Assembly (NCBI GenBank): GCA_965261975.1
Contig: CBDHEC010000055.1
Coordinates: 1 to 37,654 of the forward strand
From: Alphaproteobacteria bacterium
GTDB lineage: Bacteria; Pseudomonadota; Alphaproteobacteria; UBA6615
Length of the DNA stretch: 37,654 nucleotides
Direction of reading: 5' to 3'
The translations under genes and the position numbers were made by a program. A model generated the notes under the pieces. That model searched no databases. It was not told where the DNA came from and saw nothing but the letters and a program-made list of their open reading frames with translations. Positions 19,480 through 25,192 of this stretch are shown here, piece by piece (the stretch's first letter is position 1; the number at the start of each line of letters is the position of its first letter).

Positions 19480-19591
19480 CCGCGAAGACGCGGCAGCGCG
19501 CCCCCCGAAGAGGTCTGTTTGTTGCGCGGATCGAGATTGATAAATCATATTATGTATCTGATTTAATTACTATTTTTTCAAATTCGATGCC

Positions 19592-19666
19592 GAAACAATA
19601 AAGGCGGCGACCAGATTGGACGCCGCCTTATTGGGGGAGGAGGACACAAACACACTCAAGTGTCCT
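19592..19666 (-). ncRNA. Sigma54-dependent ~75-nt small RNA with an anti-Shine-Dalgarno core
   Basis: Begins at the predicted sigma54 TSS. 5' hairpin AGGACAC/GTGTCCT, then UCCUCCUCCCCC, then terminator CAATAAGGCGGCG/CGCCGCCTTTATTG-TTT. Confidence 0.75.
19593..19633. terminator. Rho-independent terminator, probably bidirectional
   Basis: Stem AAGGCGGCG / CGCCGCCTT flanked by A/T tracts on both sides. Confidence 0.8.
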
Positions 19667-19677
19667 ACCCCTAACGA

Positions 19678-19694
19678 TGCAACCGGCGTGCCAG
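19678..19694 (-). promoter_or_regulatory. Sigma54 (-24/-12) promoter of the sRNA
   Basis: Minus strand CTGGCACGCCGGTTGCA matches consensus TGGCACG-N4-TTGCW with GG-N10-GC spacing. Confidence 0.88.
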
Positions 19695-19704
19695 TTGCAC
19701 GCAT

Positions 19705-19917
19705 TTATTGGCTTTTCAGCTGAAAATCGATCCGGCCGGCCAGTGTTTCGGCCTCTTCCGCGACTTCGAGCATGTGTTGCGCCTCGGAACGAAGGTTCTT
19801 GGCTTCCTTTCGCAGCATTGTGATCCAGCTGCGCATGGCCTCGCGGTCCGCATCAGAGTGGCCAACATCATTGGCAACATCGTGATTCCGGCCACGGATG
19901 AGAGATAGATTGTTCAT
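19705..19917 (-). CDS. Hypothetical 70-aa protein with predicted C-terminal coiled coil
   Basis: MNNLSLIRG...REAMRSWITMLRKEAKNLRSEAQHMLEVAEEAETLAGRIDFQLKSQ; ATG lies at the predicted TSS of a sigma54 promoter. Confidence 0.65.
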   Translation of the reverse strand: MNNLSLIRGRNHDVANDVGHSDADREAMRSWITMLRKEAKNLRSEAQHMLEVAEEAETLAGRIDFQLKSQ

Positions 19918-19928
19918 ACCCCCTTTAG

Positions 19929-19945
19929 AGCAATCTGCATGCCAA
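19929..19945 (-). promoter_or_regulatory. Sigma54 (-24/-12) promoter of the 70-aa ORF
   Basis: Minus strand TTGGCATGCAGATTGCT with GG-N10-GC spacing. Confidence 0.8.
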
Positions 19946-20051
19946 CTATTCCCCGTGCGATGGCTGTTGTGGTTAAGACCGTGCATCGCGAGAATAGTCC
20001 CGCTTCGATCGTCGGAGCGCCCTTCCGACCTGACACTGAGGCACGCCTTCA

Positions 20052-22271
20052 ATGCACCTGCTGAAGAACGGAAATCGGCCGTTTCACCTGGGGTCATTTC
20101 CTCTCGAAACGCTGCCTCGCGACGATAGTCTTGGGACCCTGGAAATTTCGCGGCCGCCCGCGCCGCCGGCCGACGATCGCCCGGCATCGCCGCTACTCGG
20201 AGAGGTCACCCGCAATTTCCGCGATATGTTTGCGCAATTCTCCGTCGGCGACGTTGCGCCCGAAACCGCACCCGATACAGACGATGTGGAACGCTGCACG
20301 GTGGACATTATGGGGGCGGCCTATTTCCTGGACGCAAGCCAGGCCGGTATCTGCCTGATCCCCCAGAGTGCTTGGCGTACCGGCGCGACGCCCCTGTCCC
20401 ACAGCCACGCAATCGTCATCATGGTCGAACATAGCCGCGTGCCCGACGACGAGCCGCTCTCGGCACAGTGGACCAAATCCGCAGTGGTCGAGACCGCCGA
20501 AATGCGGGCCACCGAGATTGCCGTCAACATCGCGGGCCATATCCGGCTGATGGGCTATGACGCGCGCGCCGACGTTCCCGGTGACCGGATGCTCGATGAA
20601 GAACGCCTCGCCGTGCTGGCCGGTATCGCCATCCGTAACGACGACGACAGCCTCGCGAACCCCTATATCGAGAATTTCACATTCGCCGTCATCACGACCG
20701 ATTATCAGCTCGAATGCGACCGCCCCCTGGCCGCCAAGGCAATGAACGCCAAGGGCCTGCGCTACTGGTGGGGCATCAACGACGCCCAGTCCGGTCGCGA
20801 ACGAAACCGCCGGGCCGGGCGCCCGTCACATGCCAGCCGCTACCCGATGGAAACGGTCAAACGCATTGACCGGCCCACGACACTCATTCTCGATGACGAA
20901 GTCCCGCGGGTGCCGAAGCGGGCGGCGTTCTTCGAACGCGCACTCCAGGGTGATCTCGGCGACAAGGCACAACGCGAACGCGCCCGGTTTGCCACCAAAC
21001 ATCCGCTCGCCCGCTCGATGGTGTCTTTGATCCGAGCCATGGTCCCGCACCAGGACGGCATCCCGACGACCGCACCGGACATGTCGAAATATTCCGATCC
21101 GGCCCAGAACAGCAAGGCCCTGAAGTCCCTGTCCTACTTCCTCGGGGCCGACCTGACCGGCATTTGCGAGATTCCCCGTTATGCCTGGTACTCTCACAAG
21201 GACGACGGCACCGAAATCGAGATGTATCACAAATACGCGGTCGTGATGCTCATCGACCAGGGCTTCGACACGATGGAAGGCGCGAGCGGCGACGACTGGA
21301 TTTCCGGCAGCCAGTCAATGCGCGGCTACCAGCGCGGGGCGGAAATTGCCGGCGTGATGTCCCACATGCTCGGCCAGCTGGGATTTTCTGCACGCGCGCA
21401 GACCAATGCCGACAGCGATGTGCTACAAATTCCCCTGGTCCTGCTCGCCGGACTGGGCGAGATGAGCCGGATCGGTGAGCTGGTGTTGAATCCGTTTGTC
21501 GGGCCACGTTTCAAATCCGTCGTCCTGACGACCGACATGCCTCTCGAAGCCGATAAGCCGATTGATTTTGGCCTCCAGACCTTCTGCAACAACTGCCTCA
21601 AATGCGCCCGCGAATGCCCCTGCGACGCCATACCCTTCGGCGACAAGGTGATGTTCAACGGCTACGAGATATGGAAACCGGATGCCGAACGCTGCGCGCG
21701 CTACCGTGTTACCAATCCGCACGGATCGGCCTGCGGGCGGTGCATGAAAACCTGCCCCATCAACAAGGTGGTCGATACCGATGGCGCGTTACTTACCCGC
21801 CTGGCGAGCTGGATGGGGGTCAACGCCCTTTTCCTGAAACCGGTCATGGTCCCGATTGCCACATGGCTGGACGATGCGCTCGGCAATGGCCGGCGGAACC
21901 TTAAAAAGAAATGGTGGTTCGATCACGAAGTCGTCGGCGACCGCACGGTTGCACCCAAGGGGGTGAACCAGCGCGAGATCGACCCGTCGCGAAAAGTCGA
22001 TCCGGCCAAGCAGCGCATGGCCTACTACCACGCCAACATGATGCCGCCACCCGATACCCCCGAACCCGTCCCCGTCGACCGCAAGGCGGCCATGGCGGCC
22101 GGCGCCCTGCTGGAGACACCGGACGAGGCGAAAGCGCGCGCCGCGGCGGGCAAACCGGCGCCGGCGCATTACACCCCTACACCGCCCATGGGGGCTGGGC
22201 CGGCAAAAAAACTGGCCGAGAACCCGTACGCGGCCGATTTCAAGGACGTAAAGGCAGCCGACGCCGACTGA
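20052..22271 (+). CDS. rdhA: Cobalamin-dependent catabolic reductive dehalogenase (NpRdhA/BhbA-like), no fused reductase
   Basis: Duplicated B12-fold halves (AAYFLDASQAGIC / SYFLGADLTGIC), TMEGASGDDWIS, AGLGEMSRIG, LNPFVGPRFKS; two 4Fe-4S motifs CNNCLKCARECP and C..CGRCMKTCP; no Tat signal. Confidence 0.92.
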   Translation: MHLLKNGNRPFHLGSFPLETLPRDDSLGTLEISRPPAPPADDRPASPLLGEVTRNFRDMFAQFSVGDVAPETAPDTDDVERCTVDIMGAAYFLDASQAGICLIPQSAWRTGATPLSHSHAIVIMVEHSRVPDDEPLSAQWTKSAVVETAEMRATEIAVNIAGHIRLMGYDARADVPGDRMLDEERLAVLAGIAIRNDDDSLANPYIENFTFAVITTDYQLECDRPLAAKAMNAKGLRYWWGINDAQSGRERNRRAGRPSHASRYPMETVKRIDRPTTLILDDEVPRVPKRAAFFERALQGDLGDKAQRERARFATKHPLARSMVSLIRAMVPHQDGIPTTAPDMSKYSDPAQNSKALKSLSYFLGADLTGICEIPRYAWYSHKDDGTEIEMYHKYAVVMLIDQGFDTMEGASGDDWISGSQSMRGYQRGAEIAGVMSHMLGQLGFSARAQTNADSDVLQIPLVLLAGLGEMSRIGELVLNPFVGPRFKSVVLTTDMPLEADKPIDFGLQTFCNNCLKCARECPCDAIPFGDKVMFNGYEIWKPDAERCARYRVTNPHGSACGRCMKTCPINKVVDTDGALLTRLASWMGVNALFLKPVMVPIATWLDDALGNGRRNLKKKWWFDHEVVGDRTVAPKGVNQREIDPSRKVDPAKQRMAYYHANMMPPPDTPEPVPVDRKAAMAAGALLETPDEAKARAAAGKPAPAHYTPTPPMGAGPAKKLAENPYAADFKDVKAADAD

Positions 22272-22310
22272 CCGGCACCTCACATTTCAAATTCATGTAT
22301 GGAGACAAGA

Positions 22311-23036
22311 ATGGCCAACTTCGTTTTGGTTCACGGTGCCTGGCACGGCGGCTGGTGCTGGTCGCGCATCACACCGCATCTGCGCGCCGACGGACATGAC
22401 GTGTACACCCCCACGATGACCGGGTTCGGCGAACGCTCGCACCTGCTGACACCGGATATCGGGCTCGAGACCAACGTCACCGACATCGCCAACGTCCTCG
22501 AATGGGAATCGCTCGAGAATGTCATCCTCGTGGGAGCGAGCTATGCCGGCATGGTGACGACCAGCGTTGCCGATCGCATGCCCGAGCGGATCGCTGCCCT
22601 GGTCTATATCAACGCCTTCATCGCAGCCGACGGCGTGTCCCAGAACGACATGCTTCCCGACTGGCGGCGCGAAATGATCGAAAAAGAAGTGGCCGCGGAC
22701 CCGGACGCATGGCGCATGCCTCCCCCCGCACCCGACCTCATCGGCGTGGACGACCCGGACGACGCCGCCTGGATCGCCGAGAAAATGACGATCCAGTCCG
22801 CCAAGACGTTCCACGACAGGGCCACAATCACCGGCGCATTGGATGCGATCACAAACCGCACCTATATCCGTGCAACCGGCTACCCCAACACGACATTCGA
22901 CGCGAACGTCGCGGCATTTGACGAACATCCGGGCTGGCGCGCCGAGATTCTCGACACCAGCCACGATGCCATGATCACGGCCGTCGATGATGTGGTCCGT
23001 ATCCTTAGGGAAGTCGCTGCCAGCGTGGCGAACTGA
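22311..23036 (+). CDS. Alpha/beta hydrolase (esterase, Abhydrolase_6 / SABP2-like)
   Basis: FVLVHGAWHGGWCW, nucleophile GASYAG, His in SHDAM. Confidence 0.9.
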   Translation: MANFVLVHGAWHGGWCWSRITPHLRADGHDVYTPTMTGFGERSHLLTPDIGLETNVTDIANVLEWESLENVILVGASYAGMVTTSVADRMPERIAALVYINAFIAADGVSQNDMLPDWRREMIEKEVAADPDAWRMPPPAPDLIGVDDPDDAAWIAEKMTIQSAKTFHDRATITGALDAITNRTYIRATGYPNTTFDANVAAFDEHPGWRAEILDTSHDAMITAVDDVVRILREVAASVAN

Positions 23037-23045
23037 AGTCCCCGC

Positions 23046-23077
23046 AACAAAAAGAGCCGCCCCCTGAGGGGCGGCTC
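23046..23077 (-). terminator. Rho-independent terminator
   Basis: Stem GAGCCGCCCC / GGGGCGGCTC with a 4-nt loop, followed on the minus strand by TTTTTGTT. Confidence 0.85.
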
Positions 23078-23134
23078 CGTGAGCGGGCATTGTGCCAGCC
23101 CATGGTCTTTGAAAGACCTGTGTCTCTATCCGGC

Positions 23135-23206
23135 CTAGAGAGGTTGCTCCATAGTCCGAACCCGACACGTTGGGTTGAACATAATGCCTATCATCTCACT
23201 CGACAT
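23135..23206 (-). CDS. Candidate 23-aa peptide MSSEMIGIMFNPTCRVRTMEQPL
   Basis: GAAAGGAGGTGATCC-G-ATG; AGGAGG sits 7 nt from the ATG; TAG at 23135. Confidence 0.5.
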   Translation of the reverse strand: MSSEMIGIMFNPTCRVRTMEQPL

Positions 23207-23300
23207 CGGATCACCTCCTTTCAATTGTTGAACGGTATCGAAACCCTAGCATCGGATTCCGCGTCGCCTGCAACTGGAAAATGAGCCGTTGGCGAAGACG

Positions 23301-24527
23301 TTACCCCGCCGCCATCGCGCGGTACTTTTCTGGAATCTCCAGGTCGAAGACCCGCGCCGCGTTGTAGCCGAGAATATTCCGCTTGGCCTGCTCGTCGAGG
23401 AAGGGCAGATCCCAGATTGTCGCCGGCAGGTCAAAGTCCCAATGGGGCCAGTCAGAGGCAAATAACATCTGGGTCTCCGCGTTCATGGCGTCCATCGAAG
23501 CCGCCAACAGCGTCTCGTTTGTCCGCTCCAACGGCTGGGTCGTGAAGAACATGTCACGGATATATTCGCTCGGCAGCTTCTTGAGCAGCGGCGCTTCCGA
23601 CGTCCGCATCATGTATTCATGATCGAGCCGCTGCATGATGAACGGCAGCCAGGCCACGCCGCTTTCGATCCACATCACCTTCAGTTTCGGGAACCGCTCG
23701 GGCAGGCCGTTGATCACCCAGTTCGTAAGGTGCACGAGGTTGCACAGTACGAAGGAGATCGCGTGCATCGAGATGAACCGGTTGAGCTGGGAGGTGTATT
23801 CGTCCTGCCAGTTCAGGTGGGTGTGGAAACCCAACACCTGGCCGGCCTCCTCGAGCATGCCGTACAGCCGCATATACTCGTTTGCATGAACCGGCTTGTG
23901 CCGCGATGAGGTCACCAGGAACCCCGCGACACCGGGTTTGCCCAGAAAACGTTTGACCGTTTGTTCCGCTTCGACCGGGTTGTTGAACGGCAGATACATC
24001 ATCGCCTTGATCCGCGGGTCTTCCGGCAACACCCGCTCGACGAGCCAGCGGTTGTAGGCCGTCGCCAGGTGAATCTCCATCTCCCGGACCGGATGCATCC
24101 CGAGGAACAGCATCGCGTTGGGAAACATCACCTGATAGTCGAGTCCCATCTGGTCGATACAGCGCCGCGCCAGCACGGTTTCGCGGGAGAGTTCACTCTC
24201 CGTCACCTCTTCCTTCAACCCCTGACCGTGGGGAATCCGGCCCCAGACATTCTGCCATTGCAGTCCGTCGGTGCCGTTCAGGAACGCACCACGTTTTGTC
24301 CCGTCGCCGAAGGCCGACGCCGCCTCGCGAACCACCGGGTCCTCCACATAGTCCATGATCTCGGGCCAGTTGCCGCCGTCGCTGATATGCGAATCGATAT
24401 CGACAATGAACACGTCATCGAGCTGGCGTTCCTCGGCTTGCTTGCGGGCATTGGCCAGCAACTCCCGGCTGTCCGTCCAGTCGTCGATCTCGGGATAGGT
24501 CCGTTTGAAATCGTCATCCATTGCCAT
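23301..24527 (-). CDS. Amidohydrolase_2-fold protein, AibH/PtmU3-like dimetal oxygenase candidate
   Basis: DIDSH, GFHTH, GLPERFPKLKVMWIESG and FASDWPHWD; translationally coupled to the upstream small ORF. Confidence 0.85.
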   Translation of the reverse strand: MAMDDDFKRTYPEIDDWTDSRELLANARKQAEERQLDDVFIVDIDSHISDGGNWPEIMDYVEDPVVREAASAFGDGTKRGAFLNGTDGLQWQNVWGRIPHGQGLKEEVTESELSRETVLARRCIDQMGLDYQVMFPNAMLFLGMHPVREMEIHLATAYNRWLVERVLPEDPRIKAMMYLPFNNPVEAEQTVKRFLGKPGVAGFLVTSSRHKPVHANEYMRLYGMLEEAGQVLGFHTHLNWQDEYTSQLNRFISMHAISFVLCNLVHLTNWVINGLPERFPKLKVMWIESGVAWLPFIMQRLDHEYMMRTSEAPLLKKLPSEYIRDMFFTTQPLERTNETLLAASMDAMNAETQMLFASDWPHWDFDLPATIWDLPFLDEQAKRNILGYNAARVFDLEIPEKYRAMAAG

Positions 24528-24840
24528 CACTACCCTCCCCGGCGGGCTGCGCCCGCCCGGACCACATTGCCAGGTCAAAAAGGTTCAAATCTGCTGCGCG
24601 CAGCAGCGCGGTCACGGTGACGGCCACATCCGTTGCCGTCAGAATACTGCCCTCCGCGAGCGGCGAGAAACTCCGCCCCTCGACATCGGTCTTGCGGGCA
24701 TAAAGTCGTGTCGCGGTCGTGAGGAGTTGCTGAACGCTCGCATCGGAAATATCAGCCGTCTCGCCGGCCACGAGACGCCGATCGCCTTCCCGCATGGCCG
24801 CCTCCGCCAGGTCTGCAAAATCGCTCTCAGATGGTGACAT
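24514..24840 (-). CDS. Hypothetical 108-aa helical protein between the Rieske and amidohydrolase genes
   Basis: Overlaps both neighbours; conserved-looking LTATDVAVTVTALLRAADLNLFDLAMW segment. Confidence 0.75.
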   Translation of the reverse strand: MSPSESDFADLAEAAMREGDRRLVAGETADISDASVQQLLTTATRLYARKTDVEGRSFSPLAEGSILTATDVAVTVTALLRAADLNLFDLAMWSGRAQPAGEGSDGNG

Positions 24841-25192
24841 AGACCGCTCCGTCGCGAATCGTGACCGGGAAGCCACGCAGGTGCGAATCAGGGTTACCCG
24901 GATGAACCCCGGTCCGGATGTTGAACTCATACCCGTGCCACGGGCAGATGATGTGCACATCCGCCTCGACGAACTCATATCCGTGGGCGCATTTCTCGTC
25001 GTCGAGCACCTCGTTGACGCGGTTCATGACCCGTCCCTGGCACACCGGCCCACCGGCATGGGGGCAATTGCTCTCCCACGCAAAGAACTCATCGCCGAGG
25101 CGAAATACGCCGATCTCAAGGGCGTCCTCCACCACGATCCTTCGGTCGCGATCCGATAGTTCGTCCACTTTCGCCACATAAAGTTCAGGCAC
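24827..25192 (-). CDS. Rieske [2Fe-2S] ferredoxin
   Basis: CPHAGG and CPWHG motifs; GTG start with GGAGG RBS. Confidence 0.93.
   Translation of the reverse strand: MPELYVAKVDELSDRDRRIVVEDALEIGVFRLGDEFFAWESNCPHAGGPVCQGRVMNRVNEVLDDEKCAHGYEFVEADVHIICPWHGYEFNIRTGVHPGNPDSHLRGFPVTIRDGAVYVTI

Follow-up and report, generated by a model that had tools for sequence, protein, structure and literature searches.

The stretch of DNA analysed here, referred to as the window (37,654 nt), stems from an uncultured marine lineage of the Alphaproteobacteria and carries on its minus strand a small element that is separated by 70 nt from the end of an upstream amidohydrolase gene on that strand (24578..23301, PF04909); on the other side it is adjoined by a convergent alpha/beta hydrolase gene (22299..23036). 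As read from the sequence, the element comprises an extended Shine-Dalgarno (SD) sequence, GAAAGGAGGTGATCC, a single spacer base (G23207), an ATG that opens a 23-codon open reading frame (ORF), and a strong intrinsic terminator. SD, ORF and terminator had been named in the initial annotation of the window and are borne out by the sequence and by a terminator scan (Table 1). Since the 16S rRNA gene of the same assembly ends in ...GGATCACCTCCTTTCT, the complementarity to the 16S tail that had been claimed there extends over 15 of 15 positions, to which G23207 and A23206 add nothing. The 15-mer is unique in the window when up to two mismatches are allowed, window shuffles giving a mean of 0.10 matches, and the 13-mer AAGGAGGTGATCC occurs twice in the 3.03-Mb assembly, namely in the 16S gene and in the element. 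The duplex between element and 16S tail has a predicted energy of -31.8 kcal/mol, in contrast to -9.2 kcal/mol for AGGAGG alone.

The structured small RNA that had been proposed for this segment is supported by a 228-nt stretch folding better than 200 of 200 shuffles (z = -4.2) and by a full-length, sub-threshold match to the Rfam family RF01867. From the leader CAAC to the T run the element measures about 180 nt, as compared to a family median of 179 nt. With respect to the three hairpins originally listed, GGTCTT/AAGACC is found in the consensus fold of 12 relatives, whereas AACCC/GGGTT and CTCTA/TAGAG are absent from it and their bases are paired otherwise; in the same consensus the outer pairs of the GGAG-CAAC-CUCU hairpin covary.

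Table 1. Features of the element in the window (positions as in the 37,654-nt stretch).
Feature	Position	Strand	Basis
Possible promoter, TTGCAG (23273..23268)-N17-GCTAGG (23250..23245)	23245..23273	-	Putative; kept among same-genus loci, by eye
Leader CAACAATT, likely RNA 5' end	23223..23230	-	Rfam CC2171 model begins here (cAAcaAuc)
Extended SD GAAAGGAGGTGATCC	23208..23222	-	15/15 complement of own 16S 3' tail
ATG (23206..23204) and 23-codon ORF MSSEMIGIMFNPTCRVRTMEQPL, stop TAG 23137..23135	23135..23206	-	Sequence; frame kept across family
P1 5' strand: GUGAG 23199..23195 and GGCAUU 23188..23183, codons 3-8	23183..23199	-	MFE and consensus folds, self versus cross duplex test
Internal box UCGGGUU, possible weak partner of GAUCCGA 23212..23206 (P2a counterpart, SD/start masking)	23159..23165	-	Predicted
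GGAG-CAAC-CUCU hairpin; ACCUCU 23144..23139 alternative partner of SD core GGAGGU	23139..23150	-	Consensus fold pairs 81-84 with 89-92
Hairpin GGUCUU/AAGACC	23104..23118	-	Consensus fold pairs 114-118 with 125-129
P1 3' strand: AAUGCC 23091..23086 and CUCAC 23083..23079, just 5' of terminator	23079..23091	-	Corresponds to long-range helix of Rfam model
Intrinsic terminator: 11-bp GC-rich stem 23078..23053 and T run	23046..23078	-	Terminator scan, folds

The feature is confirmed as real and as being of a kind already described, namely the rre small mRNAs and the Rfam family CC2171; the initial interpretation, made in ignorance of this family, is supported in part. A scan of the window at the Rfam gathering thresholds gave no match, whereas at a relaxed threshold RF01867 (Caulobacter sRNA CC2171) matched over model positions 1-159 with 37.3 bits (E ~1e-6; gathering score 75), the 5' 23 nt and the terminator being aligned at high posterior. 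The RF01867 consensus begins with cAAcaAucGAAAGGAGGUGAUCC and continues with a start codon, which makes the long SD a signature of the family and not a peculiarity of the window. Element and model share this 5' consensus, a long-range helix just after the start codon, the terminator and an alignment over the full length; they differ in the central domain, which in the window has a 46-nt insertion as well as a deletion relative to the model. Three other RF01867 matches in the same genome were rejected as copies, two lying in apparent coding sequence and one being the 16S gene end.

When the model was scored on 20 loci, two of which had no match at E 0.01, the highest values were obtained for Caulobacter (120 bits), Phenylobacterium and Methylobacterium (97 each), Brevundimonas (91), Roseiarcus (83), Kaistia (76) and Falsiroseomonas (75.5). 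These were followed by Ancylobacter (65.5), a Stellaceae metagenome-assembled genome (MAG; 65), Roseococcus (62), a Bradyrhizobium rreB-type locus that adjoins a tRNA as in the published case (59; PMC5711450), Sphingomonas (41), a Dinoroseobacter rreR-type locus (40), a Rhodobacteraceae MAG (39), Sphingobium (37), Chelativorans (35), Inquilinus (31) and Henriciella (30). The CC2171, rreB-type and rreR-type loci hence form one continuum of RF01867 bit scores, inside which the 37.3 bits of the window fall, and by sequence comparison the Rfam CC2171 family forms one superfamily with the rre genes. In the literature searched, no paper joining the two names was found.

The rre genes were described by Hahn et al. 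(RNA Biol 2017, PMC5711450) as rreB of the Bradyrhizobiaceae, 165 nt long with a 14-codon ORF and a 17-nt region complementary to the 16S tail that includes the G of the GTG start, and as rreR of the Rhodobacterales with 18 codons. According to the available text of that paper, they have in common with the element and its relatives an extended SD that matches the 16S tail over its full length and reaches as far as the start codon, a very short ORF that begins immediately behind this region, a terminator, a single copy per genome, a restriction to Alphaproteobacteria and a gene context that is not conserved. The rre genes were moreover described as autonomous units of about 165 nt with their own promoter and terminator, of which the terminator is seen in the window; a sigma70-like promoter had been proposed for it, but a scan of the region found none at the scan thresholds, and TTGCAG-N17-GCTAGG was recognised by eye alone. 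By analogy with rreB of B. japonicum, the transcription start site of which was mapped 8 nt upstream of the complementarity region (PMC5711450), the 5' end of the RNA would lie near C23230.

On the other hand, the complementarity spans 15 nt in the window and at least 16-17 nt in the published genes, where it takes in the start codon's first base, so that the rre search criterion as given there would have missed the window's subtype (PMC5711450). In addition, the start codon is AUG instead of GUG, an ATG form being mentioned for Azospirillum, the ORF has 23 codons as compared to 14 in rreB and 18 in rreR, and the SD is predicted to be mostly unpaired, whereas all but 5 nt are predicted to be paired in rreB (PMC5711450). 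The element therefore represents a divergent subtype of the rre/CC2171 small mRNAs, with an AUG start and 15 nt of complementarity, and for the window itself the practical consequence is its annotation as an rre-type small mRNA. All functional data come from one species that is distant from the window's lineage (PMC5711450).

A search for homologues, as proposed in the initial annotation, yielded relatives across the Alphaproteobacteria. Full-length relatives with 75-95% identity were found in 10 of 11 other genomes of the same genus and in two further genera, and genomes more distant than these had a core of 30-40 nt alone in common. The exact SD and start pattern AAGGAGGTGATCCNRTG was present in 64 of 401 evenly drawn genomes of the class, nearly always once, with 0 matches for the reversed control. 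If TC after the start codon is added, the pattern is found in 54 of 114 other same-class genomes (53 of 113 without the unpublished genome G778), in contrast to none of the 286 sampled genomes from other classes of the phylum. About 16-47% of the sampled Alphaproteobacteria thus carry the element, with a single copy in each genome. The leader CAAC lies outside the search pattern, yet it is present in most of the pattern-matched loci.

A scan of named genomes gave at least 115 matches, and among the matches listed are Sphingomonas, Sphingobium, Caulobacter, Brevundimonas, Phenylobacterium, Methylobacterium, Bradyrhizobium, Ancylobacter, Bosea, Roseomonas-like genera, Rhodobacteraceae, Hyphomicrobiaceae, Stellaceae and Kiloniellaceae, as well as a same-genus match labelled as a Rhodospirillaceae MAG. 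The Sphingomonadales, which carry the element here, are not among the orders named in the available text of Hahn et al. (PMC5711450). All matches listed bear alphaproteobacterial names except for two MAGs labelled Phycisphaerales and Parcubacteria. The latter harbours a Caulobacter-type element with the peptide MSHCLSPQ...TWAS...EVRA, and its contig is probably a binning error of alphaproteobacterial origin; the former has the SD pattern, but with a 12-codon ORF and without the usual TC after the start codon. In three other genomes (L037, L056 and L071) the exact pattern precedes ORFs of 48-57 codons with signal-peptide-like hydrophobic N-termini, which may be unrelated genes with very strong SDs or may be derived from rre.

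For the comparison of ORFs and structures, 162 elements with enough flanking sequence were extracted, 161 of them distinct; the three genes whose ORFs have 48-57 codons, although likely unrelated, were retained in all counts, as was the Phycisphaerales match. An in-frame ORF of 18-26 codons is present in 141 of the 161 elements, in contrast to 13/161 and 26/161 for which the first stop of the +1 and +2 frames, respectively, falls into that range. The ORF crosses the internal box (see below) in 76 of 76 cases and ends before the 3' strand of helix P1 in 132 of 138, and in 45 of 53 GTG-type members the box stays in a single reading frame, though its distance from the start codon varies from 26 to 41 nt. 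Taken together, sequence comparison clearly supports the maintenance of a reading frame of limited length.

No such support was obtained for a conserved protein. The peptides of the subfamilies are unrelated (MSHCH..TWI.., MSHGSAMGSVQFVR.., MSSE...EQPL.., MSNGLV.. and MSREVLE..), and in eight of eight groups variability is about the same at codon positions 1, 2 and 3, position 3 being the least variable one in the Sphingomonadales. In tests of selection, which have low power as they concern 14-26 codons that also carry RNA structure, pN/pS was in most groups not below its out-of-frame controls, with 0.74 in frame versus 0.33 and 1.78 out of frame in the window's genus and 0.85-0.97 versus 0.78-1.03 in the MSHC groups, and it leaned towards constraint only in the rreR-type (0.71 versus 0.78-0.85) and MSNGLV groups (0.60 versus 1.05-1.21, n = 4). 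In five rreB-type sequences all changes are non-synonymous and none is synonymous, and the GGAGCAGCCUCU box (GGAGCARCCUCU) recurs in other subfamilies, where it is read in different frames. These comparisons thus indicate no consistent protein-level selection on the peptide.

A functional 23-residue protein, the expression level of which would be set by the extreme SD, hence appears unlikely. It would account for an ORF that is open and length-limited across the class, with indels before the internal box mostly in frame, for the weak translation seen with rreB fusions and for RreB and RreR being regarded as small proteins conserved within their clades (PMC5711450), and the slightly lower pN/pS values of the rreR-type and MSNGLV groups hint in the same direction. 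However, it is hard to reconcile with the lack of peptide similarity between subfamilies, with a codon position 3 that is as conserved as positions 1 and 2, in some groups more so, and with the exclusively non-synonymous changes and the differing frames mentioned above. In addition, synthetic RreB and RreR peptides were found to be unstructured, and a construct meant to raise RreB left growth unaffected (PMC5711450).

With respect to RNA structure, two helices stand out. P1 is formed by codons 3-8 and the bases just 5' of the terminator and is found in the minimum free energy (MFE) folds of most representatives as well as in the consensus fold of the window's subfamily. In the window it consists of GUGAG:CUCAC and GGCAUU:AAUGCC and is followed by the terminal hairpin, as in the RF01867 model, whereas Caulobacter-type members have CAUUGUCA:UGACAAUG and sphingomonads CAUGGUUCAGC:GCUGACCAUG in its place. 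In the 138 of 161 elements with a heuristically found terminator, P1 duplexes within an element had a mean of -11.5 kcal/mol and reached -8 kcal/mol or lower in 80% of cases, as compared to -7.6 kcal/mol and 40% for cross duplexes with the 3' segments of dissimilar members. P1 thus covaries between subfamilies, and in GTG-start members the helix that masks SD and start codon covaries as well.

This second helix, P2, is formed by GAUCC, the spacer base N and the first base of the start codon, which pair with a box Y-N'-GGAUC located 25-41 nt into the ORF. When the box was located by GG[AG]T[CT] alone, i.e. without use of N, N and N' were complementary in 65 of 85 elements (A:T 37/46, G:C 17/22, T:A 9/13, C:G 2/4), the 76 remaining elements having no box in range. 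In 35 aligned GTG-type members the N:N' combinations were AU (22), UA (7), GC (3), CG (1), UG (1) and other (1). The covariation score of these 35 members was reached by none of 500 shuffles, and 89.5% of the cells were paired versus 29-52% in slid controls; since the members were chosen for having the box, this choice alone guarantees pairing for five of the seven P2 positions, but not for N:N' and start:Y'. In the second half of P2, GGAGGU pairs with GCCUCU after a 3-nt bulge (77.5% of the cells paired). As the box pairs with the SD region, it is a look-alike of the 16S tail. In rreB-type loci (L196-L199, L106 and L114) the ORF part UGUCACCUCGCUGGGAUC is invariant, with variation confined to codons 3-4, and UGUCACCUCGCUGGGAUC is itself the 16S-tail look-alike that pairs with the SD.

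In rreB, the complementarity region was predicted to be paired except for its first 5 nt, which were proposed to seed the pairing with the 16S rRNA, followed by melting of the hairpin (PMC5711450). Judged from the covariation described above, P2 carries this prediction from the Bradyrhizobiaceae to much of the class. As P1 and P2 interleave, they would form either a pseudoknot or alternative folds, between which the cost of forcing P2 in the window (+17.7 kcal/mol) does not decide, because the nested model used cannot accommodate both helices at once. In the window's own subfamily the SD-masking helix is predicted to be weak: the box UCGGGUU (23165..23159) offers seven possible pairs, two of them G-U, 14 nt lie between it and ACCUCU (23144..23139), and the sole spacer change among close relatives breaks the P2 pair. 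In this subtype the SD core and the AUG are predicted to be mostly unpaired, and since an open SD is here combined with an AUG start, it may be translated more readily than rreB, for which ATG gave more product than GTG (PMC5711450).

Few cellular RNAs other than this family pair with the 16S tail over its entire length. The family is encoded by a single-copy gene in a large share of the Alphaproteobacteria and has been without a known function since 2008 (CC2171) and 2017 (rre). For rre, function "remains elusive" (PMC5711450); for CC2171, which was detected by Northern blots in Caulobacter and Methylorubrum, no condition affecting it had been identified and its function was given as unknown in the available part of the report (bioRxiv 10.1101/2022.01.24.477521). 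What sequence comparison newly contributes is the RF01867 continuum, the retention of the ORF without selection on the peptide, and the covariation of P1 and of the masking helix of the GTG type. Three results narrow the range of possible functions, namely that there is one superfamily, that length and frame of the ORF are kept without the peptide, and that the masking helix covaries class-wide. It is thus probable that the segment is an rre-type small mRNA gene of about 180 nt within the Rfam CC2171 superfamily, in which ribosome capture and a short ribosome passage, and not the peptide, are under selection.

As the sequence shows, the leader (CAACAAUU) precedes 15 bases complementary to the whole free 3' tail of the 16S rRNA, the AUG comes one spacer base later, and the ORF runs into a compact fold that is closed by P1, with the strong terminator behind it. 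According to the reading given here, the selected activity would be the capture of a ribosome and its short, length-limited passage through the folded core. Passage would open P1 and, in GTG-start relatives, also the helix by which the 16S-tail look-alike masks SD and start codon, and this opening would couple the fate of the RNA, be it decay or processing, to ribosome engagement. The suggestion that the element binds the 30S subunit is supported by published work on its homologue: rreB was found in the ribosome pellet and co-sediments with the 30S subunit, and binding was tight and required the 5' extension of the SD (PMC5711450). Furthermore, rreB is translated only weakly as judged from fusions, its half-life rose from 10 to 37 min upon a change of GUG to UAG, and a soluble product of about 60 nt was seen with an ORF probe only (PMC5711450).

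A more specific version, which is tentative and may well be wrong, would regard the rre/CC2171 RNAs as ribosome-gated switches for which the act of translation, and not the peptide, is the signal. The 16S tail might seed on a free GAAAG(G) toehold and then displace the internal self-copy (C-N-GGAUC...GCCUC) from SD and start codon, whereupon a single ribosome moving through the ORF, which is limited in length but free in sequence, might unzip the interleaved P1 and P2. The RNA would thereby be committed to cleavage, releasing a core fragment that carries the 16S-tail look-alike. A soluble product of about 60 nt was reported in PMC5711450; such a fragment could then act on SDs in trans, or the turnover of the RNA could report the free 30S pool.

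Alternatively, the RNA might titrate free 30S subunits as a decoy, in the manner of a "6S RNA for ribosomes" whose short ORF serves ribosome release only. 6S RNA is a decoy of RNA polymerase that is released by templated synthesis, and by analogy only, an rre RNA could likewise mimic the normal substrate of a core machine and be released or destroyed when used as a template. In line with such a decoy, the complementarity covers the whole 16S tail, and binding of rreB to the 30S subunit is tight and dependent on the SD extension as outlined above (PMC5711450). However, the available text of PMC5711450 offers no evidence of titration, and the same paper speaks against the bulk sequestration implied by the 30S-sequestering RNA of the initial annotation: growth was unaffected when the ribosome-binding form of rreB was overproduced 20-fold, and in the judgement of its authors ribosomes far outnumber the RNA. 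As the gene is in addition present in a single copy per genome, we regard a decoy as quite improbable.

A base-pairing small RNA, or a sponge for anti-SD-type small RNAs such as the CCUCCUCCC candidate at 19.6 kb in the window, is very improbable. Such a partner is suggested by the minus-strand CCUCCUCCCCC box with a terminator hairpin at about 19590..19660, but the best predicted duplex involves the candidate's terminator stem and not its CCUCC box (CCUCCUCCC), and the candidate matched no Rfam family even at E 1. Moreover, the 15 invariant bases have precisely the same limits as the 16S tail, and the start codon follows at a fixed spacing in all members, neither of which a sponge would need.

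Least credible of all is that the segment is only the 3' UTR of the same-strand amidohydrolase gene, as the 70-nt distance and RNA-library contigs of relatives that span the junction of gene and element might suggest, or a type I toxin-like mRNA: neighbours differ between loci (upstream same-strand in 23/46, downstream convergent in 33/45, counts that are indicative only as they derive from crude stop-to-stop ORFs in GC-rich DNA), gene context is not conserved according to Hahn et al. either (PMC5711450), and the peptide is neither hydrophobic nor conserved as a protein, nor was an antisense partner seen. On this evidence the toxin, sponge and pure 3'-UTR readings were rejected. The RNA-library contigs, which come from four libraries of four studies, belong to relatives that are 88-95% alike and cover parts of 23046..23337; they are short and of low depth, and because they give neither ends nor strand, run on upstream into the amidohydrolase gene and may represent DNA, they were not counted as evidence of a discrete transcript.

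Two further ORFs on the minus strand of the window, 24514-24978 (154 codons) and 19705-20187 (160 codons), had no Pfam match; the former overlaps the start of the listed amidohydrolase ORF and may be spurious. The 160-codon ORF and an HlyD-family gene flank the gap in which the candidate small RNA at 19.6 kb is located (19590-19680, minus strand), which consists of GUGUCCUCCUCCCCC with the anti-SD-like box, a hairpin AAGGCGGCG...CGCCGCCUU and a T-rich run. Presumably this box resembles those of alphaproteobacterial small RNAs carrying CCUCCUCCC motifs.
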